A stretch of DNA of 64,000 nt from Escherichia phage B9-1. How positions within the stretch are numbered: the first letter of the stretch is position 1; every line of letters starts with the position of its first letter. A program made the position numbers and the translations under genes. Under the pieces are notes generated by a model. That model did no database searches, was not told the origin of the DNA, and saw only the letters and a list, made by a program, of their open reading frames with translations. This document shows, piece after piece, positions 4,398-49,819 of the stretch. Where the stretch lies: sequence record OQ420740.1; one strand, written 5' to 3'.

Positions 4398-4485
4398 TTT
4401 GAGAGGGTATTTTATTTAGAAGGGTAATCACACAGAGGCAGGTAGTTTATGAAGGCATAGGCCTCGTTTGAGGCCTTAAAATAGG

Positions 4486-4869
4486 TTACGACGATACCTT
4501 GACAGATTTATCTGATAAAGCTGGGAAACCTAAAGCAGCACCAAGACCGCCATACGCTATCCACCACTGGAGTTCATCGTGGCACCATTTTCCAATCAAG
4601 AAGGTGCTGTAGTAGCGGGTCAGTATCTTGGCATATGCTTTAGGATCTGCATTCTCCGGTATGATAATGCTTGGTGGGCGTTTGTTATGACCACAGCAGC
4701 AGTTTAAGGTCTTCAATCCTGCCGCCCATAGGCTCATGATAGGTTTAGCCATGCACTTATCAAGGCACACACGTTTTTTGCCGTCACGGAGCTTTTTAGG
4801 CACATCAACGATAACATTTGGATGCTTGGCACCTTTCACTTTCCAATTATAAGATTTACACTTGCACAT
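4486..4869 (-). CDS. Hypothetical Cys-rich protein (127 aa)
   Basis: Track ORF; cluster CLDKC...NCCCGHN suggests metal binding; family not recognised. Confidence 0.55.
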   Translation of the reverse strand: MCKCKSYNWKVKGAKHPNVIVDVPKKLRDGKKRVCLDKCMAKPIMSLWAAGLKTLNCCCGHNKRPPSIIIPENADPKAYAKILTRYYSTFLIGKWCHDELQWWIAYGGLGAALGFPALSDKSVKVSS

Positions 4870-5070: not shown

Positions 5071-5546
5071 GGTTCTTTCTCCGGTTCAGGATCTGGATAA
5101 TCTTCAATAATAAAGGGCCATCCGTTACGCTTAGCGTCAGACTTATACTCAATCTCCTTCATTGCAAACTCTAACTGATTCTTAGCCGGAATGCAAGCTG
5201 GAGAATCATCAACCCAGATGTCTGGGTAGATATCAAACTGCGCCAGATAAGCGGCCTTCTGAACGCCTTCAGTATAAAACACTCCAACATCTAACTCCTT
5301 GCGCCAGTATTCGATGTCCACGTTGTCTTGAGTGATGAATCGGAAAGTCACAAGATAGACTGTCCACCCTTCCTTCTTCAGGTCCTTAATAAGGCGGGAG
5401 AAGATGAAAGGGCTCGCATTAAACGTTCCATCAAAGTCGATAGCAATGATGTGGGTGCCGTGACGAGTCTCATATGGATTGCTCGTGGTGAGATTGCTGT
5501 AGTTGAAAGGTACTTCTTCTCCGCAGTAGCTGTAGTCCATATTCAC
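5067..5546 (-). CDS. HAD-superfamily phosphatase-like protein (possible nucleotidase)
   Basis: Track ORF 159 aa; HAD motif I IIAIDFDGTF and distal acidic motif WVDDSP. Confidence 0.6.
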   Translation of the reverse strand: MNMDYSYCGEEVPFNYSNLTTSNPYETRHGTHIIAIDFDGTFNASPFIFSRLIKDLKKEGWTVYLVTFRFITQDNVDIEYWRKELDVGVFYTEGVQKAAYLAQFDIYPDIWVDDSPACIPAKNQLEFAMKEIEYKSDAKRNGWPFIIEDYPDPEPEKEP

Positions 5547-5818
5547 ACCTTCTCGTTGATAAATTTACGGGCGGTTTGGTGAGTTGTTTCTGCTGTCTTC
5601 AGAATGATATTAATTTTATTGTCAAGATCATTCATCTCAGCAGTTAATTCAGGAATCTCTCCAGCATGCATGGTGAAATCATACATAGACATACCCAGGA
5701 TCTCATTGATTCGGCGGTTGCATTCTGCAGCACGTTGGTTCATTTTCCAAGCTAACACTAGAGCCTCTTGCGTAGCCTCTAGTGCAAAGTCTAATACGTC
5801 AGCTTCTTCTTTCGTCAT
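5543..5818 (-). CDS. Hypothetical protein (91 aa)
   Basis: Track ORF; 4-nt overlap with downstream gene. Confidence 0.55.
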   Translation of the reverse strand: MTKEEADVLDFALEATQEALVLAWKMNQRAAECNRRINEILGMSMYDFTMHAGEIPELTAEMNDLDNKINIILKTAETTHQTARKFINEKV

Positions 5819-5874
5819 CTCAGTCTCTCTTGTTGTATTGTTGATAGGTGTATGAATGCTTTATAACTCACCTT

Positions 5875-6441
5875 TTATTCAAACTGCAATAGCAAATCCA
5901 CTACCGCGCTAGGTCTGTCAACAAACTCACCGGGTCCACATGCCCACAGAGGGTATCCGTCTACATACCGCCAAATCCAACCTGCAGTGTGGAGTTCTAG
6001 CAGGGCAGTACCGTCCTTACTGTCAACCACTCTTTCCCACAGTGTTGGGCAGCGAAGCTTGAGGATCGGATCCCCTCCCTTATACCCATCCATGTAGATA
6101 CCCATTGCAAAGTTCAGCATCATCTTTTTGTGCACTGACCTCTTACTGAGGGTGCTCATCACTTCCTCTTTGTGGATGTTTGTAAGCTTCTCCTTGGCTA
6201 CCTGCAGATCGTTGCAGCCATTGTTCAGAAGATCTTCCAGACACTTGACCCGAAGGTCGTGAATATCTTTGTCGTGCACCGTTGGTACAGGGTCGTAGCG
6301 ATATAGCACTGTTGATACAAGGTTGCTCGGGTGTGGGTCTGACAGCAACCCATAACCCCAATACTCCTCTGTATCTGAAAGGACAAGACACCCAATGTCT
6401 CTGTCAAGCTTTCCTGTGTTGTAAGCCACATTGACCGCCAT
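5875..6441 (-). CDS. Hypothetical protein (188 aa)
   Basis: Track ORF; no recognised motif. Confidence 0.6.
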   Translation of the reverse strand: MAVNVAYNTGKLDRDIGCLVLSDTEEYWGYGLLSDPHPSNLVSTVLYRYDPVPTVHDKDIHDLRVKCLEDLLNNGCNDLQVAKEKLTNIHKEEVMSTLSKRSVHKKMMLNFAMGIYMDGYKGGDPILKLRCPTLWERVVDSKDGTALLELHTAGWIWRYVDGYPLWACGPGEFVDRPSAVVDLLLQFE

Positions 6442-6443
6442 AA

Positions 6444-6689
6444 TTATAGCTCCACTAGCAAAGTGCTCTCAAAATGCCTCTCATGCAGACCACTATAAGG
6501 AACCACTTCCACAACACCGTCGCGGATGTATGGAGTCATCATGGTGACATAATCACCGAACGGGTTGGCATTATCACTAACCACGACCACATGCTGCCCC
6601 TCCTTGGCAGAGTGCCAGATAGATCTGCACTTCATCATGTGTTCGAGAGCGCCAGGTAAAATCTTGTTACGTTCTTTACGGGTCTTCAT
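6444..6689 (-). CDS. Hypothetical protein (81 aa)
   Basis: Track ORF in co-directional block. Confidence 0.5.
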   Translation of the reverse strand: MKTRKERNKILPGALEHMMKCRSIWHSAKEGQHVVVVSDNANPFGDYVTMMTPYIRDGVVEVVPYSGLHERHFESTLLVEL

Positions 6690-7135
6690 AACAGATATAG
6701 CTCCTTATGAAAGTGGGCTTTCAATTTCTCACCGAGAAACTTCTTGATACCTTCCTCTAAAGTGTTTTCGATGTAGTCCAGCTTAACTGCTTCGATAGAC
6801 ATATCATAGATCGCCAGCTCTAAGCTGTCAAGTCCCATCATAGCATGAACCATAAGATTTTCATCTTCAGATACATTCAGGGGACTTCCTATAACATCTG
6901 GAGGCAGAATAGTTTCCCAATTATTCTGGGCGGTAGATCTCCCGCCATCCACCTTACGTCTCAGCTCGAATGTATTCTTAGTGTAGAACACTTCATAAGA
7001 AACGATACGACTGTCACTCTCATAATAGACGAAGTTCAAGTAGGAGCCCAGCCGTAGTCGGCAAACTTCTACCCCAAACCATTGTTTCTTATAAGAATTC
7101 AGGCTAATGCTGTCGCATTCACGTTTGCTCAACAC
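6686..7135 (-). CDS. Hypothetical protein (149 aa)
   Basis: Track ORF; 4-nt overlap with neighbour. Confidence 0.55.
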   Translation of the reverse strand: MLSKRECDSISLNSYKKQWFGVEVCRLRLGSYLNFVYYESDSRIVSYEVFYTKNTFELRRKVDGGRSTAQNNWETILPPDVIGSPLNVSEDENLMVHAMMGLDSLELAIYDMSIEAVKLDYIENTLEEGIKKFLGEKLKAHFHKELYLL

Positions 7136-7151
7136 GGCTCTCTCCTTCTTG

Positions 7152-7385
7152 TTAATCTTCGTAAATAATGATTTCTGCTTTAGGTTTTCGTGCTTTCAGG
7201 TCCAGCTCTATCCAGTGCACCATCGCTGTTTCAAGAAAAACAGCCTGGATGCATCCGTCTTCAGCGTGCCCTACCAGCATAACAAGATCTTCACATTCAT
7301 CATCTGCATCACGGACATACAAGATCTCTCCAGATTCAAAGTCTTTCACAACCTGATTGCTGGATAATTTACGAATTTTTGCCAT
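7152..7385 (-). CDS. Small protein, member of tandem paralogue array (77 aa)
   Basis: Track ORF; shares GEI/GTVV core and acidic C-terminus with next three genes. Confidence 0.5.
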   Translation of the reverse strand: MAKIRKLSSNQVVKDFESGEILYVRDADDECEDLVMLVGHAEDGCIQAVFLETAMVHWIELDLKARKPKAEIIIYED

Positions 7386-38097: not shown

Positions 38098-38126
38098 TTG
38101 ACATACAGTCTGACACCAAATACACT
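38098..38126 (+). promoter_or_regulatory. sigma70-type promoter
   Basis: -35 TTGACA 38098-38103, 17-bp spacer, -10 TACACT 38121-38126. Confidence 0.5.
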
Positions 38127-38563: not shown

Positions 38564-38620
38564 TTGACACGCTGCAAAATTCAAGTAAACTAATCACAAA
38601 AGGCGGGAATGTTTCCCGCC
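38564..38620 (+). promoter_or_regulatory. sigma70-type promoter plus 5' leader hairpin
   Basis: -35 TTGACA 38564-38569; weak -10 TAAACT ~38586; hairpin GGCGGGAA-tg-TTTCCCGCC 38602-38620 then AACACAAAGGA and ATG 38640. Confidence 0.5.
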
Positions 38621-38639: not shown

Positions 38640-39044
38640 ATGAATAAGAACGTACGCCGCATCATGAATGAACTGGCAAACGATGAAAAAATTATTGACA
38701 TGCATTTGATCAACATTTGCCGCCGTTGTGTAACATATAACAACCGCGCCGCAAAAGCGCGTGAGATGAACGCAAAAGGCACCTTAAAGCCCTTCCAGGT
38801 GGTGGTAAAGGCCATTAAAGATGTAACTAATACGGCAAATCAGGTACAGGGGAACACCAACGAAAGTACCAATATTGATCCGGCTTACATCATGAAACGG
38901 ATCCGGACCTGCAAGAACAAAGAGCAGGTGTATAACGTCATAGACTGGTTGGATTCCATGGGCGACGTGGTGTACAATAGGTTTTCTGCAGCTATCGAGA
39001 TCCAGCTTGACAGGTTGGACGGTAAAGTACTGAAAACTTACTAA
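38640..39044 (+). CDS. Hypothetical protein (134 aa)
   Basis: Track ORF. Confidence 0.6.
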   Translation: MNKNVRRIMNELANDEKIIDMHLINICRRCVTYNNRAAKAREMNAKGTLKPFQVVVKAIKDVTNTANQVQGNTNESTNIDPAYIMKRIRTCKNKEQVYNVIDWLDSMGDVVYNRFSAAIEIQLDRLDGKVLKTY

Positions 39045-39093
39045 GTTTATTTTTAGATGGCCTTGACTACAGGGCCATCAATAAAGTAAACTA
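39043..39093 (+). repeat. Conserved ~45-bp intergenic element, copy 1
   Basis: TAAGTTTATTTTTAGATGGCCTTGACTACAGGGCCATCAATAAAGTAAACT, starting on the stop codon; internal hairpin GATGGCC...GGCCATC. Confidence 0.7.
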
Positions 39094-39123
39094 ATCTCAG
39101 TTAAGCGAAAAAGGGGCTTTAAG

Positions 39124-39243
39124 ATGAGCACTACACGCCAATACACAAAGGTAACTATTATCGCCTGCGTTGTCGGTTACATCCTGGCGCAAATGTTAAT
39201 GAGTAGCGCTAACAGTTTTGCAAAATTTTTCTTAAATTTTTAA
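39124..39243 (+). CDS. Small hydrophobic peptide (39 aa)
   Basis: ORF below track cutoff, MSTTRQYTKVTIIACVVGYILAQMLMSSANSFAKFFLNF; weak RBS. Confidence 0.25.
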   Translation: MSTTRQYTKVTIIACVVGYILAQMLMSSANSFAKFFLNF

Positions 39244-39271
39244 TTGACAAGCTAACCCAAATCAGTATACT
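39244..39271 (+). promoter_or_regulatory. sigma70-type promoter
   Basis: -35 TTGACA 39244-39249, 16-bp spacer, -10 TATACT 39266-39271; then leader hairpin GGGAAAACTTCCC 39285-39297. Confidence 0.6.
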
Positions 39272-39322
39272 TAAACACGTAAACGGGAAAACTTCCCAGA
39301 ACACACAAAAGGAGAAAACACC

Positions 39323-39664
39323 ATGACTACTATGACCGCCGCAGAAAAAGCTATTCAGGTTGCCGCACTGAAAAAACAGATCGCAGACCTTGAGAACAAG
39401 ATCGATAACTTTGAAATCGACGAGGACAAGTACGACGAAAACTATGATGAATGGTTAGACGAGGTCTACGGCGAAATCATGATCGGAAACATTTCTTTTC
39501 TTCCGTCGCGTATCCTCAAGGAGCTAGATCCTATCGCTTACCGCTGCGGATTTAGCGACTACATCGACAGCCTGGATATTGAGGACGATGAAGAGTACCA
39601 AGAATTGCAAACAGAGTTGGAAGAAGCAAAAGAAGAGCTTGCAGAACTGGAAGAAAACGAGTAA
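39323..39664 (+). CDS. Highly acidic coiled-coil-like protein (113 aa)
   Basis: Track ORF; RBS AAGGAGA; D/E-rich, e.g. DEDKYDENYDEWLDE and DIEDDEEYQELQTELEEAKEELAELEENE. Confidence 0.6.
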   Translation: MTTMTAAEKAIQVAALKKQIADLENKIDNFEIDEDKYDENYDEWLDEVYGEIMIGNISFLPSRILKELDPIAYRCGFSDYIDSLDIEDDEEYQELQTELEEAKEELAELEENE

Positions 39665-39713
39665 GTTTATTTTTAGATGGCCTTGACTCCAGGGCCATCA
39701 ATAAAGTAAACTT
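39663..39713 (+). repeat. Conserved ~45-bp intergenic element, copy 2
   Basis: TAAGTTTATTTTTAGATGGCCTTGACTCCAGGGCCATCAATAAAGTAAACT, starting on the stop codon. Confidence 0.7.
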
Positions 39714-39750
39714 TACACTGTTAACACTGAACTAATGAGGAGTTAAAACC

Positions 39751-39996
39751 ATGGCAGCACTAATCACCAAATACTATGCCCCTACCAACACCAAAAGCGC
39801 CCGGATCATGGTAAAAGGCTTCGGACGTAAAAAGGTTTACACCTGGGATTATTCCCTAGACATGGAAGACAACTACACCAACGCGATGACCGATTTTATT
39901 AACGAGCTGAATACGCGGATCTTAACAAATTATAAAATTACCGACATTGCTTATATAGGTGAAGGCGGGATCTGTTTTGTAGGCATTGTGAAATAG
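39751..39996 (+). CDS. Hypothetical protein (81 aa)
   Basis: Track ORF; RBS GAGGAG. Confidence 0.55.
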   Translation: MAALITKYYAPTNTKSARIMVKGFGRKKVYTWDYSLDMEDNYTNAMTDFINELNTRILTNYKITDIAYIGEGGICFVGIVK

Positions 39997-40047
39997 TTAT
40001 TTTTTCGGTGGTCCTGGTTGCAGGGCCATCTATAAAAATAATTTACT
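39997..40047 (+). repeat. Diverged copy of the ~45-bp intergenic element
   Basis: TTATTTTTTCGGTGGTCCTGGTTGCAGGGCCATCTATAAAAATAATTTAC, directly after a stop codon. Confidence 0.5.
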
Positions 40048-40071
40048 AACACCATGAAAGGAGAAAGTAAC

Positions 40072-40425
40072 ATGATCAGCGGTGCAAGTTTTATTATTGG
40101 CGCTATTGCTACGGCTTTAATTGTAAACAAGATCCAATCCAAAAACGAAAAAGAGAGCAACGCCCTTGCAGAATATCCATTTTGGACATTTAACGATAAC
40201 GAAGATTATATTATAAAGTATAAAAATAAAGAAGGTGACCAAGTAACACCGCGACCGATCCCGGCTTACAAGATGCAGGAAACACTATACCGCCTGGAGG
40301 CGGGGGGCGCAAAAATTGTGGACTTTTGGGGATACGATCACACAGATCAGGAAGTTATAAAGCGCCGTATCCGGGCTATTCAGGCCAATATTGAAGTTAG
40401 CAAGGGGGGAATATATGAAGATTAA
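40072..40425 (+). CDS. Putative membrane-anchored protein (~117 aa)
   Basis: Track ORF 40054..40425; ATG 40072 after RBS AGGAGA; N-terminal helix ISGASFIIGAIATALIV. Confidence 0.55.
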   Translation: MISGASFIIGAIATALIVNKIQSKNEKESNALAEYPFWTFNDNEDYIIKYKNKEGDQVTPRPIPAYKMQETLYRLEAGGAKIVDFWGYDHTDQEVIKRRIRAIQANIEVSKGGIYED

Positions 40426-40612
40426 TTTTGAGAAGATTGTAAAGCGATCTCATGATTCCGAAGAGCTGCCGGAACGCCGCCAGCGTAACAATAAACTGAA
40501 TAAGCCAAAAAGATTTGGAAAGATCTGGCGAAATCATTATGATCGTAAATTGCCTGGCCTACTTTTGGAACGTGAACGACAGGCAGAACGATACCGCCAT
40601 AAAGACAAATAA
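40415..40612 (+). CDS. Small basic protein (~65 aa)
   Basis: Track ORF 40391..40612; ATG 40415 after GGGGGGA preferred. Confidence 0.45.
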   Translation: MKINFEKIVKRSHDSEELPERRQRNNKLNKPKRFGKIWRNHYDRKLPGLLLERERQAERYRHKDK

Positions 40613-40620
40613 CAACCAAC

Positions 40621-40647
40621 GCCCCGCCATTGTGCGGGGCTTTTTAT
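40621..40647 (+). terminator. Intrinsic terminator
   Basis: GCCCCGC-cattgt-GCGGGGC then TTTTTATTT. Confidence 0.75.
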
Positions 40648-40793
40648 TTCTATCCTACGAATAGCGCCCCTGGTTGGCCCTATAAGCGCCAAAAAGGCCC
40701 CCACCTATGCAATCCCCTTTCTTAACCTGAAAACATCGCCCAGGGCCGTTTTATGGCGTTAAAAATATTATTGACAGTGATTTTATTTAAAGC

Positions 40794-40821
40794 TTGACAT
40801 CTTAAACAGGTTAGCTATACT
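40794..40821 (+). promoter_or_regulatory. sigma70-type promoter
   Basis: -35 TTGACA 40794-40799, 16-bp spacer, -10 TATACT 40816-40821. Confidence 0.6.
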
Positions 40822-40853
40822 AACCACATCAAAGAGAGAAAGGAGTAAACGCC

Positions 40854-41114
40854 ATGCGTAAATTAAAAAATTTTGATAAGGTTGATGTTGTCCTGAATAA
40901 TTTTTACTACTGCAACAACAAGGCCATTTGGTGGCGTGATAGTTCCACCGATAAAGTCAAGGCGCGCTTTCTCCAGGGGCACTGGCAAGGCCGCCCAGTG
41001 ATTAAAATCATGGGGCAATTGGTAGCGTTTAAAAATTGCCGCCGTGTTGATGACGTTGAAGAGATCTTGAACATTTTACGCCACAATAATTTAAAAAATA
41101 GTGTTGACAAGTAA
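40854..41114 (+). CDS. Hypothetical protein (86 aa)
   Basis: Track ORF; RBS AAGGAG. Confidence 0.6.
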   Translation: MRKLKNFDKVDVVLNNFYYCNNKAIWWRDSSTDKVKARFLQGHWQGRPVIKIMGQLVAFKNCRRVDDVEEILNILRHNNLKNSVDK

Positions 41115-41160
41115 ATCTCGATAAGTATAATTAAACACACAGGCGGGAAAACTTCCCGCC
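41104..41160 (+). promoter_or_regulatory. Near-consensus sigma70 promoter plus 5' leader hairpin
   Basis: -35 TTGACA 41104-41109, 16-bp spacer, -10 TATAAT 41126-41131; hairpin GGCGGGAA-aac-TTCCCGCC 41142-41160; RBS AGGAGA; ATG 41189. Confidence 0.7.
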
Positions 41161-41188
41161 ACTAACAAAGAAAACAGGAGAAAATATC

Positions 41189-41812
41189 ATGACCACCGTT
41201 AACATTACCACAGGTTACAATTTATCTTTCGACGTGCTGACCGACGAACAAAAAGAAAAAGCCGTTGAAATGGTCCGCGAAAGAGAAGAACACAGCGGGG
41301 ATAACTTTTTTGCAGAAAGTGTAATTGAATACTATAAAGAATATGTTTTTCCAGAGTATGGCCTTGAAGATACCGAAGTACATTGGTCCGGCTTTTGGTG
41401 CCAGGGTGACGGCGCGTCAATCAGTGCTGAAAACGTTGATTTAGAAAAATTCTTGCGTAAAGTCAAATCTCTGACTAAATTCCGCTCAATTCGTAACTTG
41501 TTCGGCACAATGCACGATGGCGAGCTATCTGCAAGTGTTGAGCGTGATCCATATAGCCGCCATAGTCACGAAAACACTGTAAGCGGGTACATTGATACTA
41601 CATGGCTAGACCTGACAGCCAAGCAAGAAAGTAAGGTTGAAGAGCTGGAAGAGCTGATCACCGAGACGGTACGGGAGCTATCCCGCAAGGTTTATGTAGA
41701 CCTGGAGGAGGCCTATCTTGAACAGTTTACTACCGAAAACCTGATCGGCCTTATTGAAGCCAATGATTGGCGGTTTAATGTGGATGAATATGGGGAGATG
41801 AGTTTTTCATAA
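41189..41812 (+). CDS. Hypothetical acidic protein (207 aa)
   Basis: Track ORF; largest gene in the island; no motif recognised. Confidence 0.65.
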   Translation: MTTVNITTGYNLSFDVLTDEQKEKAVEMVREREEHSGDNFFAESVIEYYKEYVFPEYGLEDTEVHWSGFWCQGDGASISAENVDLEKFLRKVKSLTKFRSIRNLFGTMHDGELSASVERDPYSRHSHENTVSGYIDTTWLDLTAKQESKVEELEELITETVRELSRKVYVDLEEAYLEQFTTENLIGLIEANDWRFNVDEYGEMSFS

Positions 41813-41820
41813 ATAAAGTG

Positions 41821-41877
41821 TTGCAATAATCTAAAAACCTGCTATATTAAAACTCAAGGGGCGAGATGACTTGCCCC
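41821..41877 (+). promoter_or_regulatory. sigma70-type promoter plus 5' leader hairpin
   Basis: -35 TTGCAA 41821-41826, 16-bp spacer, -10 TATATT 41843-41848; hairpin GGGGC-gagatgactt-GCCCC 41858-41877. Confidence 0.6.
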
Positions 41878-41901
41878 ACACAAAACAAAGAGGATAACAT
41901 C

Positions 41902-42282
41902 ATGAAAAACACCACCAAGGCTATTGACACCGTTATGTTTAACCTGGTTACATTCCGTGAAGATATGAAAGATCTTCCACGTGAAACAGTGTGCGACCAT
42001 ATCGAAAACTATCGCAAACTTATTAAAGAATTGCCATTAAAACGAGATCAGTACGCGGCTAACGCTATGCTTAACGCCATGATCAAAAAGATGATCCAGT
42101 GTGATTTAACTCTGGCCTATGATTATGCAGGTGGTCGTTTTGCAGTATACAATCAGCCCGTGCCTGGTATGAGCACCACCGAAGAATTGCACGCGCTCAA
42201 TCTAAAACAAGACGTGTGGGATAATATGCCCCGCGTGGTGGTGTGGGCAGAAAGCGGAAAGATTTACGGCGATAATTTTTAA
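41902..42282 (+). CDS. Hypothetical protein (~127 aa)
   Basis: Track ORF 41866..42282; ATG 41902 after RBS AAGAGGA preferred. Confidence 0.6.
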   Translation: MKNTTKAIDTVMFNLVTFREDMKDLPRETVCDHIENYRKLIKELPLKRDQYAANAMLNAMIKKMIQCDLTLAYDYAGGRFAVYNQPVPGMSTTEELHALNLKQDVWDNMPRVVVWAESGKIYGDNF

Positions 42283-42348
42283 TCAGGTAACAGGCGGCGG
42301 CATATTTGCCGCCCTATTGTTAAGAAGAATTGTAAGAGGGTACATAGA

Positions 42349-42720
42349 ATGGAATTTATTATTTTGGCTATATTAGTTGCCTTGTTTAACGCCTGGATCG
42401 CTGGCAAGATGGGCAGATCTGCCTTTTTATGGTTTATTATATCTATCTTCCTGGGAGTGGTTGCAACTATTGTATTGGTTATCCTTGCAATTGTTGATAA
42501 GGGGAATAATAGAAAGGGTAAAGTATTTTCAGACCTGTACGACGCTCAAACATTTGTCAACGCCTACTACAGCGATCTTCCAGTCTCCCTACGTTGCAGC
42601 CTTGCACAACAGGTTTTCGATGAAGCTAAAACCAGAGATCACGCCCATGAGATATGTTTAACTGAGGCGGATCGCCTATTTGAGAGGAATAGAAAATATG
42701 TGGACCAACCGTTTAAATAA
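42349..42720 (+). CDS. Putative membrane protein (123 aa)
   Basis: Track ORF; two hydrophobic helices near N-terminus. Confidence 0.6.
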   Translation: MEFIILAILVALFNAWIAGKMGRSAFLWFIISIFLGVVATIVLVILAIVDKGNNRKGKVFSDLYDAQTFVNAYYSDLPVSLRCSLAQQVFDEAKTRDHAHEICLTEADRLFERNRKYVDQPFK

Positions 42721-42770
42721 TGCCACGTTAATTAATCCCTTTAGTGAAGATTTGAAGCCAGCCGCCTGGC

Positions 42771-42956
42771 GTGATGGATTCAATAACGAAAGCTTTATTT
42801 TCAGGCCTGATCTTAAGGAATTTTATAACAATGGATCGAACAACGACAGAGATAATTTTTCTCGTAATGTGCGTGGCGATAATACTCCTGGGGGCCATTG
42901 CAAACCACGTCACTGCTAACAGGAGGGAAGGGGGAGACGATGACACCCAAGGATAA
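42771..42956 (+). CDS. Possible small membrane protein (61 aa); frame choice ambiguous
   Basis: Track ORF with hydrophobic segment IIFLVMCVAIILLGAIA; competing ORF 42680..42919 in another frame. Confidence 0.3.
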   Translation: MMDSITKALFSGLILRNFITMDRTTTEIIFLVMCVAIILLGAIANHVTANRREGGDDDTQG

Positions 42957-43059
42957 GCCCCGCACCGATAAGGCGCGCCGTGTTATGGTATGGCTTGAGA
43001 TCATCGCCCTTGAAATATTGTTAGGCGTAGGGATGTATTTTATCGCTGTAAGTAACTGA
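42940..43059 (+). CDS. Small membrane peptide (39 aa)
   Basis: ORF below track cutoff, MTPKDKPRTDKARRVMVWLEIIALEILLGVGMYFIAVSN; strong RBS AGGAGGGAAGGGGGAG; followed by terminator. Confidence 0.4.
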   Translation: MTPKDKPRTDKARRVMVWLEIIALEILLGVGMYFIAVSN

Positions 43060-43063
43060 TAAC

Positions 43064-43096
43064 GGCCCCCGATCCCTGGGGGCCTAACTTTTTAAA
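43064..43096 (+). terminator. Intrinsic terminator
   Basis: GGCCCCC-gatccct-GGGGGCC then TAACTTTTTAAATTTTTT. Confidence 0.75.
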
Positions 43097-43113
43097 TTTT
43101 TTCTCCCTGGGTG

Positions 43114-43165
43114 TTGCAATCCGATCCAGAATATGGATAATAACAATCAACGGGGAGCAATCCCC
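43114..43165 (+). promoter_or_regulatory. sigma70-type promoter plus 5' leader hairpin
   Basis: -35 TTGCAA 43114-43119, 16-bp spacer, -10 GATAAT 43136-43141; hairpin GGGGAGCAATCCCC 43152-43165 then ACCAACACAAAG. Confidence 0.6.
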
Positions 43166-43196
43166 ACCAACACAAAGACTAAAAAGGAGAAACAAA

Positions 43197-43397
43197 ATGA
43201 GCAACAATATCCGCGTTATTAACTTCAAAAAAGAAGAAAAAATTGCCGTGCTGATTGACGGTCAAGAAATCTTTAAAGGCGATTATGAAGATCATCAGGT
43301 AGCGATCAGTATTACCCGCGTGATTGGTTACCATAATTTTTACCCCCAAGGCGCTGAGGCAGCAGTAAAACGAATTAAAGAGATTGTAGGCCTGTAA
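43197..43397 (+). CDS. Hypothetical protein (66 aa)
   Basis: Track ORF; RBS AAGGAGA. Confidence 0.6.
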   Translation: MSNNIRVINFKKEEKIAVLIDGQEIFKGDYEDHQVAISITRVIGYHNFYPQGAEAAVKRIKEIVGL

Positions 43398-43399
43398 AA

Positions 43400-43444
43400 T
43401 TTATTTTTAGATGGCCTTGACTCCAGGGCCATCAATAAAGTAAA
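43400..43444 (+). repeat. Conserved ~45-bp intergenic element, copy 3
   Basis: TTTATTTTTAGATGGCCTTGACTCCAGGGCCATCAATAAAGTAAA, immediately after stop codon at 43395-43397. Confidence 0.7.
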
Positions 43445-43481
43445 TTTAAACCCTGTTAAAATAATCAGTGCAAAAGGAGTA

Positions 43482-43787
43482 ATGATCATGTTTATCCAGG
43501 CTAATAATCTTTATTTCTTTGATGGTCAGATCGTAGACGGCGTGGAGGTGGAAATCACCGGGTGCCCTGGCGGTCAGGTTATGACTTTTCGGAATAATGC
43601 CTTTGATGATTCTCATATCGTTATGAGAATGGAAGTTAGTAAGCTGGACGATAAGAAAACACTCATTGATTATTCCGTGAAAGATCATCCAGACTACCAC
43701 ATGATCTATGGCGATTTGTGCATTGTTGACCGTGACAAGGTGGGCGGCATTGTGATCGCTATTGTGAACGATGTTTTCTCTAAATAA
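43482..43787 (+). CDS. Hypothetical protein (101 aa)
   Basis: Track ORF; RBS AAGGAG; ATG 43488 equally possible. Confidence 0.6.
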   Translation: MIMFIQANNLYFFDGQIVDGVEVEITGCPGGQVMTFRNNAFDDSHIVMRMEVSKLDDKKTLIDYSVKDHPDYHMIYGDLCIVDRDKVGGIVIAIVNDVFSK

Positions 43788-43927
43788 TTCCGGCAAATGA
43801 TGCAAAATAAGGCCCCTGGCAGGGCCTGCAGCGATATAATCACATAAAGGCTATGCGGTTGCATGGCCTTTATTATTTTAGCGTTACAGCTGCCCCCAAG
43901 GCGCTTAAAAAATTTTTAAAGAAGTAC

Positions 43928-44676: not shown

Positions 44677-44856
44677 ATGGCTATTATTGCAAAGACCGAG
44701 ATTGTAGGGTTAGATTCTATTCTCCTGGCATATGAGGAGGCTATAGAAATGTATGTGGTTTCCTATGGTGAGTATATCCGTGAATATAAATCTATTGATC
44801 TAGCTTTTGAATGTTATATTCGCCAGGTCAATAAAGCATATGATGATTATCGTTAA
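44677..44856 (+). CDS. Small hypothetical protein (59 aa)
   Basis: ORF just below track cutoff, MAIIAKTEIVGLDSILLAYEEAIEMYVVSYGEYIREYKSIDLAFECYIRQVNKAYDDYR; preceded by promoter, hairpin and RBS AAGAGGA. Confidence 0.45.
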   Translation: MAIIAKTEIVGLDSILLAYEEAIEMYVVSYGEYIREYKSIDLAFECYIRQVNKAYDDYR

Positions 44857-47412: not shown

Positions 47413-49819
47413 CTGCTCTTCTCCTACCATAAACGGCCCTACCTGGCAAGTGGAATAATTGACTAGCCATCAATCCCACACACTGTACAAATATACATAT
47501 AAAATAACTATTGCATAATCTTTCACTGTGTGGTAGCAGGGCCATTTTTACCCGTTTTCTCTCCCAAAAGTGCACGTAATGCCGCTATTGCACAAATTTT
47601 AACCTGATGCACATCTCCAATATCTTGTCAACAACTAAAAATCTTTATAAGTCATACACTTACACAACATAGAAAGCGTGTCCTACGCGAAAAATCGAGT
47701 ATAACTATAGCCGCCAGATCTCAGAATTCACGTACGAACACCATTCTATAGTCTGCAAAGTATTTATTCCAACCACAGAATAACGGAATAGTCAATACCT
47801 GCATAAAATAATTATTCGTGTAAACTGCATAACATAAATCAGCTCAGGTGTCAACATTTTTCGTAAACAGTCCGAAATTATCACGATGAGTTATCATAAA
47901 CAGAGAAATCTTTAGTCGTCTAATGTTTACTGTACATTACTATACTGACTGGAATCATTAGATGACTAAGAGAAAGATAAGAAATAATTAATAATGTAAT
48001 TGTTTTACCTGTAACAATAAGGCAACTATGCAAACGAATGGCATGGCGCGACGGAGTCGCGACATAATATAAAAGCAGTAACAATCACCCCCGTGATAGT
48101 TTTTCTGCAATCTATTACTCAGATCATAGTTGCCTTGTATTTAGTTAATCATGACATAACAAGCAAGGCAACTATAGATCTTCTAATAGTTGCCCTGCTT
48201 TTATATTATGTCATAGATTGTTAGCTTGTTAATTGTTTTCATGCAAACGAATGGCATGGCTTATCATCTCTGTGTAAACTGTTCAGGCGTAAACAGTCTA
48301 TGCGTAAACAGTGAGATATGGAATAGTAACAGCCGTTATTGTGTCATATTGTGTGACATTGTGTCCGGTGTCTGGTGTCCAGTGTGTCAGACAAGTTTTT
48401 CTCCTCTTTGTCAAGTGCTGCATGAAAAATTTACAAACTGGTATGGTAGCATTTTTGCGGCCCTGTTTACATTCAGGAATGTATGTATAATCCTTGTTGT
48501 GTGGGCGTTTAGACGTCTGGACGGTCAGAAGTCTGCAGGTCAATATCTAATCTATTGGTTGCTAACTATATCCCACACAAATAGTAAGAAATATAATTGT
48601 TATATGCGTAAACAGTAACCCATGTTATCAATCCCTGCATGTATCGCCAGTGGTGCGCATAATGGGTATTATGTTAAATTGCCCGTAATGATAACCATTC
48701 TCACAATGATAGGTATTCTCATTCACTCCCACAAGATAGATTGCAAATGTTGTGCCACTGTGTGAACGGCCTGGCCTATTAATTTGCCTCACTGCCTCGA
48801 TATTTGAGAATTATTATAAAAATGAGAAGTATTCCCATTCCGTCCGCCTGGCAGCACTCCTGTAGGACAGGCACAAAATCGGGGTATAACTGGACCTGTT
48901 CAGATATTTCTGGCTGACTCTTCAGGCCTGTGTGGGAAAAGCCAACCTCTCCGGCGGCGGGGAGGGGTCAATTAAAAAATTTACGTGGTGTATGAAGCGC
49001 TCTTCAGGTAAGGCAGGTATTATGGGATGAAACCCTCTTCAGATGATGATATTTGTGGGTGTGATATTTGCTGGAAAGCCAGATATGACGGGACTCCCGG
49101 CAGGGGTGGGGTAGTACAGACAGGGAAAATGTGGGAATGTGATGGAGTAAATTGATCAGGTAGGTAGGATATGGAATATGTTACAAGTATGTTAAATATG
49201 GAGGTAGGATATTTGTAAGATTTGTGTGTAAAATCAAATACTTAAGTGGTGTTGTGGTATTTTCTATAAATAATTCAAGTTTAATAGGTGATATTTGTCT
49301 CCATCCACTTTGTGTGGTAAACAGATTCTAATTGAATTGGTTTACAAGTGTATATAAAGTATACAAATTAAAGATATAAGAAACCCCCCTCCCCCTTCGG
49401 CTACCATTCACCTTTTCCTCTGACTGGTACTTAAACACTTATTCAGACTCTTCAGGTTATCACCCATATACTATATGGCAGTGACTGGTGTCCTCCGGCC
49501 CCTCTTTCGTCACCCGTCCGCTTCGCCATGCTAATGCCATAGCCAAATGTTCGGTTGTTCACCCTGTTCACTCAGGTGTATCTCCATACCCCTTCAAACC
49601 GAAGAGAACAGAAAACCCGAATTACTCGGTAAAAGAAAAGAGAAGAACTTAATTTTATCAAGATAGGCAAGAATGTCAAGGGATGACTGCTCACTAAACA
49701 AGCAAACAGTCATGTGTGGTGGGTAAGTAACTGTGTTGGTAGGAAATTTAGTTGAAAGATGTTATAGGTGCCTCCAGAACCTTAGCTGGGCAGCTAAACC
49801 TGCAAAGCAGACTTGTGTG
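47413..49819. other. 2.4-kb non-coding, repeat-dense region between convergent gene blocks
   Basis: No convincing ORF; CGTAAACAGT x4, ATGCAAACGAATGGCATGGC x2, AAGGCAACTAT x4 in alternating orientation, palindrome GTCGCGAC, CTCTTCAGG x4. Confidence 0.7.

Follow-up and report, generated by a model that had tools for sequence, protein, structure and literature searches.

A strand-specific RNA hairpin at the stop codons of small early genes in rV5-like phages: a candidate RNase III-type site and a point of cassette recombination

In a 64,000-nucleotide stretch of DNA from Escherichia phage B9-1 (OQ420740.1; hereafter the window), a short repeated element was found between small early genes, which are named here by the open reading frame (ORF) numbers of phage rV5. 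Every gene around the element lies on the + strand. The first-pass annotation had reported a 45-mer repeated almost base for base, and it is indeed present at 39046-39090, 39666-39710, and 43400-43444, with the one substitution of copy 1 sitting in the loop of the hairpin described below. The core GATGGCCTTGACT[C/A]CAGGGCCATC occurs at 39056, 39676, and 43410 on the + strand, and shuffled sequences are expected to give 0 matches in the 64-kb window. A looser pattern search added a diverged copy with its core at 40010-40030; this fourth copy had been noticed before and is now placed at 39995-40043. In summary, there are four copies in 4.4 kb: three near-identical ones, called A-type (copies 1 to 3), and one diverged B-type (copy 4).

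Where does the element begin? Every copy begins on the stop codon that ends the preceding ORF, namely TAA at 39042-44 (ORF194), TAA at 39662-64 (ORF192), TAG at 39994-96 (ORF191), and TAA at 43395-97 (ORF179). The next start codon lies about 28-38 nt 3′ of each copy. Thus, the earlier observation that the copies begin on stop codons and precede the next gene holds for all four. RNA folding gave the same 49-nt bipartite hairpin in all four copies. It consists of a 10-bp A/U lower stem, a 2×3 internal loop, a 10-bp G/C upper stem, and a tetraloop, and the first paired base of the lower stem is the final base of the stop codon. This fold replaces the 7-bp stem around a 10-nt loop that had been proposed, and the TTGACT motif assigned to that loop is actually half in the stem and half in the tetraloop. 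The A-type upper stem is GAUGGCCUUG/CAGGGCCAUC with one U·G pair, and copy 3 has an A-U pair in place of the G-C pair at the foot of the lower stem. The B-type upper stem and loop read GGUGGUCCUG-GUUG-CAGGGCCAUC, and an A-U pair is shifted in its lower stem. Although 13 of the 49 hairpin positions differ between the B-type and copy 2, the stem lengths, the 2×3 loop, and the tetraloop are kept. The bases of the internal loop are UA/AAU in the A-type and UC/UAU in the B-type, with the same geometry.

The fold is stable and strand-specific. On the + strand, the copies have folding energies of -22.3 to -25.4 kcal/mol (A-type, -23.6 to -25.4 kcal/mol; copy 1, -24.6 kcal/mol; copy 4, -22.3 kcal/mol), with z scores of -6.1 to -7.7 against shuffles. 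The - strand folds are weaker, at -11.4 (copy 4) to -18.2 kcal/mol with z scores of -2.8 to -4.9. The hairpin persists in a 290-nt context, where the mean pair probability is 0.97-0.98 for the A-type (0.98 for copy 1) and 0.66 for copy 4. A covariance model was built from the four copies and run with filters off. It scores copy 1 at 82.1 bits on the + strand and 40.2 bits on the - strand, and copy 4 at 72 bits. No copy other than those at the same four sites was detected by the model in the 64-kb window or in the complete rV5 genome. The weak matches at 48124 and 60472 are unrelated to the element, the former being a different long hairpin. An Rfam scan of the 36-46 kb region at a permissive threshold gave only sub-threshold chance matches (SurC and rhtB), far below the gathering scores, and RefSeq has no feature annotated on the element. 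The element is confirmed as a real, conserved RNA hairpin that begins on the stop codons of four small early genes.

The pairing itself appears to be under selection. The comparison drew on 47 copies (34 distinct) in 14 related genomes and contigs; metagenomic copies bring the number of distinct ones to 38. In the 47 copies, which are closely related and whose alignment was fitted to the model, 98.4% of the pair cells are able to pair, and shifting the 3′ partners by 1-3 columns lowers this figure to 57% at most. Two-sided changes were found at four pairs of the lower stem (G-C/A-U/G·U, U-A/C-G, U-A/A-U/G·U, and A-U/U-A), while all changes in the upper stem are to or from G·U. Among the 38 distinct copies, the pair cells comprise 658 Watson-Crick pairs, 88 G·U pairs, 9 A·C mismatches, and 5 others, so that 98% are able to pair. 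Since a G·U pair turns into an A·C mismatch on the opposite strand, this bias indicates a constraint on the single-stranded form of the + strand. Given the orientation of the genes, that form is most simply mRNA. Orthologous elements are 93-99% identical, compared with 86-95% for other intergenic DNA and 76-84% for the third codon positions of five of the six neighbouring genes examined (ORF178, 98.8%). Thus, the claim that conservation is far above the surroundings stands between the paralogous copies, whose flanks are unrelated to each other, whereas the excess between orthologues is more modest.

How widespread is the element? The window comes from an rV5-like E. coli myovirus of the genus Vequintavirus, and the 6 kb around the element is 94-96% identical to the corresponding region of S127 BCL3, rV5_ev156, PDX, FV3, and about 120 others. 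A BLAST search against a phage collection returned 120 records with the element, all of Vequintavirus except KKE7M. Pattern matches in IMG/VR reach the scores of real elements solely on rV5-like contigs, and the metagenome scan likewise gave rV5-like contigs only, about 137 kb long where the full size is known; these viral and metagenomic contigs amount to a handful. There were zero matches in 185,579 bacterial and archaeal genomes. In searches with the flanking proteins, ORF194 had no homologues outside the genus and those of ORF192 were weak and scattered, so that no deep comparative series was possible.

As listed in Table 1, each of copies 1, 2, and 3 forms the end of a unit that opens with a sigma70 promoter, followed by a short leader hairpin at the 5′ end, a small ORF of unknown function, and the long hairpin at the 3′ end. 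The neighbouring genes gave nothing significant in Pfam and only families of unknown function in PHROGs.

Table 1. Coordinates of the element copies, their parts, and the surrounding features in the window
Feature	Position	Strand	Remarks
Copy 1, A-type hairpin	39044..39092	+	after the ORF194 homologue (38640-39044), before the 39-aa ORF193 (39124-39243)
Copy 2, A-type hairpin	39664..39712	+	-25.4 kcal/mol; after ORF192 (39323-39664)
Copy 2, lower stem	39664-39673 / 39703-39712	+	
Copy 2, internal loop	39674-75 / 39700-02	+	
Copy 2, upper stem	39676-39685 / 39690-39699	+	
Copy 2, tetraloop	39686-39689	+	
Copy 2, -35-like TTGACT and -10-like TAAACT	39683-88; 39707-12	+	
Copy 3, A-type hairpin	43398..43446	+	after ORF179 (43197-43397), before the ORF at 43482-43787
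Copy 4, B-type hairpin	39995..40043	+	after ORF191 (39751-39996), before ORF190
Unit closed by copy 1	P38564; leader 38602-38620		ORF194
Unit closed by copy 2	P39244; leader 39285-39297		ORF192
Unit closed by copy 3	P43114 (weak); leader 43152-43165		ORF179
ORF194 promoter TTGACA-16-TAAACT and leader hairpin GGCGGGAATGTTTCCCGCC	38564..38620	+	
ORF192 promoter (P192 of rV5)	TTGACA 39244-49; TATACT 39266-71	+	
ORF192 cassette	39244..39712	+	promoter, leader hairpin, ORF192 (39323-39664), copy 2
ORF179 putative weak promoter TTGCAA-16-GATAAT and leader hairpin GGGGAGCAATCCCC	43114..43165	+	weak by weight matrix
Copy 1-copy 2 segment (ORF193, promoter, ORF192)	39093..39663	+	missing in magaca, ECP32, and IMG/VR contig L028
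ORF191 segment	39707..40020	+	missing in 241Ecol014PP

The clear early promoters are followed, about 10 nt past the -10, by a short G/C hairpin that would be the 5′ end of the transcript. Besides the three in Table 1, such leader-type hairpins lie at 41142-41160, ~41858-41877, and ~46160 in the window, and two of all those in the window are near-identical (GGCGGGAA-NNN-TTCCCGCC; chance expectation, 0). KKE7M has at least six copies of a promoter plus GGCGGGAAATGGTTTCCCGCC in 12 kb (2693, 5306, 8636, 9003, 9847, and 10829). The leader hairpins look like a PeSL-type stem-loop downstream of the -10 (PeSLs are the promoter-plus-stem-loop repeats of T4-like phages described below) or like 5′ mRNA stabilisers. 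Another cassette-end hairpin, at 42288-42325 after ORF184 (t184), repeats the layout of the element at a smaller size, with a 6-bp lower stem, a 2×3 internal loop, a 7-bp G/C stem, and a tetraloop; its tail is U-poor here. Elsewhere in the window, two long, near-perfect hairpins at 47908-47971 (-18.6 kcal/mol) and 48121-48180 (-26.1 kcal/mol, z -7.7) lie in the counterpart of the 2.6-kb ‘non-coding’ region of rV5 between ORF163 and ORF164. These two could be related to a replication origin or to packaging.

Related phages have lost or exchanged cassettes by recombination between the copies. In magaca, ECP32, and L028, ORF191 directly follows the ORF194 homologue, and a single chimeric element lies at the junction. 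According to BLAST, the deletion break is inside the element: the window sequence up to 39092 is joined to that from 39664 on, with 49 bp shared. The remaining element has the 5′ flank of copy 1 and the 3′ flank of copy 2, and the 5′ flanks of the junction vary among the three (ACTAAG, ATTGAG, and ACTGAG). A different deletion was found in 241Ecol014PP, where the 5′ half of copy 2 is joined to the 3′ lower-stem strand of the B-type copy 4. The resulting element has two lower-stem mismatches, exactly at the covarying positions. KKE7M, a phi92-like Justusliebigvirus of another subfamily, shares 39243-39710 of the window at 94.9% identity, from the promoter -35 through the last base of the hairpin, and is otherwise similar to this part of the window only in two unrelated short stretches. 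Since the copies are direct repeats of about 50 bp, they are also crossover points for homologous recombination, which deletes or transfers the cassettes between them. The crossover points differ by event, which fits ordinary homologous recombination on a 50-bp repeat and not a site-specific enzyme. Of the earlier suggestion of a recombination or homing target, homologous crossovers between the copies are thus borne out, and no evidence was found for homing or a dedicated enzyme.

KKE7M has an unrelated bipartite hairpin at 4463-4526 (-26 kcal/mol, z -7.4), which starts on the stop codon of the homologue of the window ORF 44677-44856, and the block of homology with the window stops exactly at the start of this hairpin. 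At ~43795-43801, just 5′ of the stem-loops at 43810-43873, 10 of the 12 loci covering the point carry an extra segment of about 345 bp with a small hypothetical gene, which the window does not have. Further plasticity of the region around the element is seen in the laboratory-evolved rV5 derivative rV5_ev146 (5400-7300 of its locus), where copies 1 and 3 are absent: ORF194 and ORF193 are replaced by another small gene, and a block behind ORF190, including the copy 3 region, is gone.

What could the hairpin do? In the reading that I propose, small early-gene (ORFan) cassettes have their 3′ end marked by a strand-specific RNA hairpin module, which is likely an RNase III-type site; I put the probability of this reading at about 0.5. 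Of the candidates listed by the first-pass annotation, an RNA processing site is the molecular role best supported, by the strand-specific structure, the covariation, and an architecture like that of the T7 RNase III sites. The early mRNA reading through the element would fold it into about two helical turns of double-stranded RNA, and it would act after transcription, as do the RNase III sites in the early transcripts of T7. A cut by host RNase III, at the internal loop or close to it, would separate the cistrons. The 3′ hairpin left behind would protect the upstream message, which often has a 5′ leader hairpin too, and a cut on the 3′ side of the hairpin would give messages with structure at both ends. 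Both the cleavage and the stabilising effect are what I infer from the structure and its position.

Substrates of E. coli RNase III are about two helical turns long, which corresponds to ~20-22 bp of double-stranded RNA, either continuous or stacked coaxially (PMC1540722, PMC6212723), and all four copies have this length, with 10 + 10 bp across the 2×3 loop. Internal loops confine the cutting to one strand, and the 3′ hairpin that remains shields the upstream RNA from exonucleases; the distance from the tetraloop to the cleavage site is about 11 bp, with a distal box of UA/UG beside the tetraloop (PMC1540722). In both the A-type and the B-type, the asymmetric internal loop is at position 11 from the loop-closing pair, as judged from structure only. 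The copies are intercistronic on the sense transcript, with promoters upstream and no terminator between promoter and element. When the box register is set by analogy with T7 R1.1, the A-type reads as follows from the loop: the loop-closing G-C pair at position 1, U-A and U·G at positions 2-3 as a canonical distal box like that of R1.1, and four G/C pairs at positions 4-7 between the boxes. G-C at positions 2 and 4 of the proximal box inhibits RNase III (PMC1540722). In the proximal box (pb) of the A-type, pb2 is A-U (position 9) and pb4 is A·A in the internal loop (position 11), both acceptable and without an antideterminant. The fit to an RNase III site is good for the architecture and partial for the sequence determinants.

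Several points weigh against this proposal. In the same register, pb1 is U-A (position 8) and pb3 is G-C (position 10), both non-canonical, and the distal box of the B-type is U-A/C-G, with C-G where the A-type has U·G. A few orthologous copies have uncompensated mismatches at column 7 of the lower stem. The double changes of the lower stem would keep a DNA palindrome as well, and the G·U bias, the sole argument for a single-stranded form, does not separate RNA from single-stranded DNA. The conservation of orthologues is not extreme, with sliding-window percentiles of 45-99. The A-type copies are far more alike than RNase III substrates require, and gene conversion, recent duplication, or a sequence-specific partner would account for this equally well. 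The A-type also scores as a weak promoter, so that selection may act partly or wholly on transcription initiation. Finally, a literature search found no Vequintavirus transcriptome paper.

A promoter role is harder to judge. The A-type hexamers are TTGACT or TTGACA and, after an 18-nt spacer, TAAACT or TAAATT, which match 9-10 of the 12 consensus positions; the version with TTGACT matches 9 of 12, the noise level of a simple consensus scan. When positions were scored with a weight matrix derived from the 26 promoters that the rV5 authors predicted, the A-type copies ranked 32nd, 37th, and 45th of 127,900 window positions with scores of 13-16, while the clear promoters at 38098, 38564, 39244, 40794, and 41104 score 19-26. 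Thus, the statement of the first-pass annotation that there is no usable -10 was too strong, and the A-type copies may add some weak internal promoter activity, judging from sequence. Could the element be a composite of the PeSL type, in which the A-type is a working sigma70 early promoter for the downstream gene while the overlapping stem-loop attenuates or terminates upstream transcription and insulates the cassettes? The layout is as published for PeSLs: a stop codon in AT-rich DNA and a stem-loop with G-T pairs over the -35 and spacer are followed by a -10, a Shine-Dalgarno sequence, and an ATG (PMC2839356). The -35-like hexamer is within the stem and loop and the -10-like hexamer within the 3′ lower-stem strand, which is the overlap known from PeSLs. 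TTGAC is invariant in 31 A-type variants, with T, A, C, or G as the sixth base and TTGACA in eight, and the unrelated KKE7M hairpin at 4463-4526 has TTGACA-17-CATAAT at matching places. However, the B-type keeps the hairpin without a -35 (score, -4.0), so the shared feature is the hairpin and not the promoter. The spacer of 18 nt is found in only one of the 26 training promoters, and the -10 matches four of six positions; such -10-like strings arise automatically from an A-rich 3′ stem strand. Within the -10, the variable position changes together with the base that it pairs with, which lies 46 nt upstream beside the stop codon. The element has neither the A-tract upstream of the -35 nor the G/C leader hairpin of the clear promoters of this phage, and it offers no U-tract for termination; moreover, transcription has to pass through it to reach the downstream genes. 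The element is not among the 33 promoters and 20 terminators listed in the rV5 genome paper, which proposes host sigma70-type promoters throughout and suggests that modification of RNA polymerase may not occur (PMC3606486). A literature search with the element sequence gave chance matches only. Taken together, a composite of the PeSL type is doubtful, and a promoter or terminator for a phage-modified polymerase, also suggested earlier, is unsupported, with canonical U-tract terminators lying nearby.

The stem-loop might instead act during transcription with no promoter function, as an attenuator or pause site, factor-independent or factor-assisted, that tunes the ratio of promoter-proximal to promoter-distal genes. 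Every copy indeed comes after the first or second gene from a promoter. A PeSL stem-loop cut reporter expression as much as rrnB T1 (PMC2839356), and the rV5 authors named the hairpin at 42288-42325, which also has a 2×3 loop, terminator t184. On the other hand, the 8 nt 3′ of the G/C stem are AAUAAAGU without a U-tract, the phage uses textbook terminators elsewhere, and intrinsic termination has no use for the 10-bp A/U lower stem, which is conserved and covaries. This possibility is unlikely. An outright terminator role is also unlikely, because the U-tract is missing and transcripts must extend through the element to cover conserved downstream genes. Although there is a hairpin, its G/C stem is followed by AAUAAAGUAAAC, in line with the earlier judgement that this is not a classical terminator. 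The terminator scan does not call the element, while it finds canonical terminators at local operon ends (40621, 43064, and 43844). No separate promoter serves ORF190 and ORF189, which follow the B-type copy, and hence transcription must read through the B-type hairpin. Two other candidates were rejected: a terminator on the opposite strand, where the hairpin is weaker and is followed by UAAAAAUAAAC, and a stimulator of stop-codon read-through or frameshifting, since there are stops in all three frames and no extended ORF after the element.

Does the element function as DNA? It may be a site for a phage or host protein, either an operator or a site- or structure-specific recombination site that folds as a single strand like attC. 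The near-identity of the three A-type copies suggests sequence-specific recognition, crossovers fall within the element, and the cassette that moved between subfamilies ends on its right side where the element does; folded single-stranded DNA tolerates G·T pairs as well. Yet no recombinase or regulator was found beside the copies, whose neighbours all belong to PHROG families of unknown function and lack a significant match in Pfam. The crossover points vary (the 3′ lower-stem strand in magaca, ATAAAG in 241Ecol014PP), and the left half-site of the B-type is degenerate as double-stranded DNA. A DNA-level site is thus very unlikely. In its most ambitious form, which is highly speculative, the hairpin would be more than passive homology, namely a dedicated site for cassette exchange, folded from a single strand and recognised, as an attC site is, by a phage enzyme specific for the structure. 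Promoter-ORFan-hairpin cassettes would then pass between rV5-like and phi92-like phages by means of an integron-like system without a canonical integrase, and the strand-specific pairing, the conserved asymmetric 2×3 loop, the position at the cassette 3′ end, and the KKE7M boundary would be its recognition features; this is scarcely probable. Finally, the element might have no function and be a selfish or hitch-hiking palindrome whose copies stay alike through duplication or gene conversion. There are only four copies in one 4.4-kb stretch, known from one genus plus one transfer. Such a repeat would hardly explain why the diverged B-type keeps the pairing, the loop geometry, and the stop-codon position, why the G·U pattern is strand-biased (88 against 9), or why, in five of six neighbouring genes, third codon positions are less conserved than the orthologous elements; I regard this explanation as highly improbable.

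If the copies are RNase III sites, rV5-like therapeutic phages would process early polycistronic mRNAs as T7 does, and ORFan messages flanked by a 5′ leader and a 3′ hairpin would be a compact design for the expression of host-takeover genes. The recombination data carry the PeSL style of modular shuffling beyond the T4-like phages, and a whole expression cassette has moved between Vequintavirinae and Stephanstirmvirinae. Such shuffling helps to account for the fact that entire small genes distinguish the early regions of these widely used O157 and biocontrol phages. As to annotation, the four sites are unlabelled in RefSeq and absent from Rfam.

How does the element compare with known systems? 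The T7 sites R0.3, R0.5, R1, R1.1, and R1.3 were folded from the NC_001604 sequence at the positions reported for the five early RNase III sites by Dunn and Studier. Like the element, they are intercistronic on the sense strand, and the lower stem can start on a stop codon (R0.5, G-UGA-UAG). They share an asymmetric internal loop whose 3′ side is one nucleotide longer and an upper stem of 9-10 bp, rich in G/C with G·U pairs and capped by a tetraloop, giving about two helical turns. Several near-identical copies likewise exist within the T7 genome. R1.1 also has U-A and then U·G after the loop-closing pair, the canonical distal box (PMC1540722). In contrast, the T7 internal loop is about 4×5 instead of 2×3, the lower stem is not nearly pure A/U as in the element, and the phage here is a myovirus that uses the host RNA polymerase. 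There is no sequence homology between the element and the T7 sites; the resemblance of R1 CAGGUCAUC/GGUGGCCUG to CAGGGCCAUC/GGUGGUCCUG of the element, with the arms swapped, is probably due to chance. In T7, the minor E. coli promoters B and C (positions 1514 and 3113) are annotated beside or inside the RNase III hairpins R0.5 and R1, which is a precedent for weak sigma70-like promoters in the A/U-rich flanks of RNase III sites.

REP-type mRNA stabilisers of E. coli are imperfect palindromes between cistrons of one operon. They resemble the element in that they could block 3′ exonucleases and raise the expression of the upstream gene. Unlike the element, they are chromosomal, far more numerous, about 35 nt long, and associated with a transposase family. 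Sequence similarity between the two is not to be expected; the search for it covered Rfam.

The PeSLs, or promoter-early stem-loops, which Arbiol et al. 2010 (PMC2839356) and Comeau et al. 2014 (PMC4122927) describe for T4-like phages only, start at the upstream stop codon and mediate the deletion and insertion of ORFan cassettes and the formation of mini-circles. Shared with the element are repeated intergenic motifs between ORFans in a variable early region, an AT-rich start at the stop codon, and a stem-loop with G-T pairs that overlaps -35- and -10-like hexamers. In both systems, neighbouring copies recombine and cassettes are lost or gained, here in four genomes and one transfer between subfamilies. 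However, PeSL promoters match the sigma70 consensus and are very strong, whereas the element matches 9-10 of 12 positions with an 18-nt spacer, and there is no promoter in the B-type. PeSL stems are short GGGG/CCCC hairpins proposed to be terminators, whereas the hairpin of the element is long and bipartite without a U-tract. An analogy with the integron attC site was drawn earlier for PeSLs (PMC2839356). Like attC, the element is an imperfect palindrome at the 3′ end of a cassette, folds strand-specifically with unpaired bases, and is found where a cassette moves whole. Unlike attC, it has no integrase and no R and L core sites, the cassettes have their own promoters, and the crossovers look like ordinary homologous exchange. 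The element combines known kinds, an RNase III-like hairpin and PeSL-like shuffling, and is not radically new.

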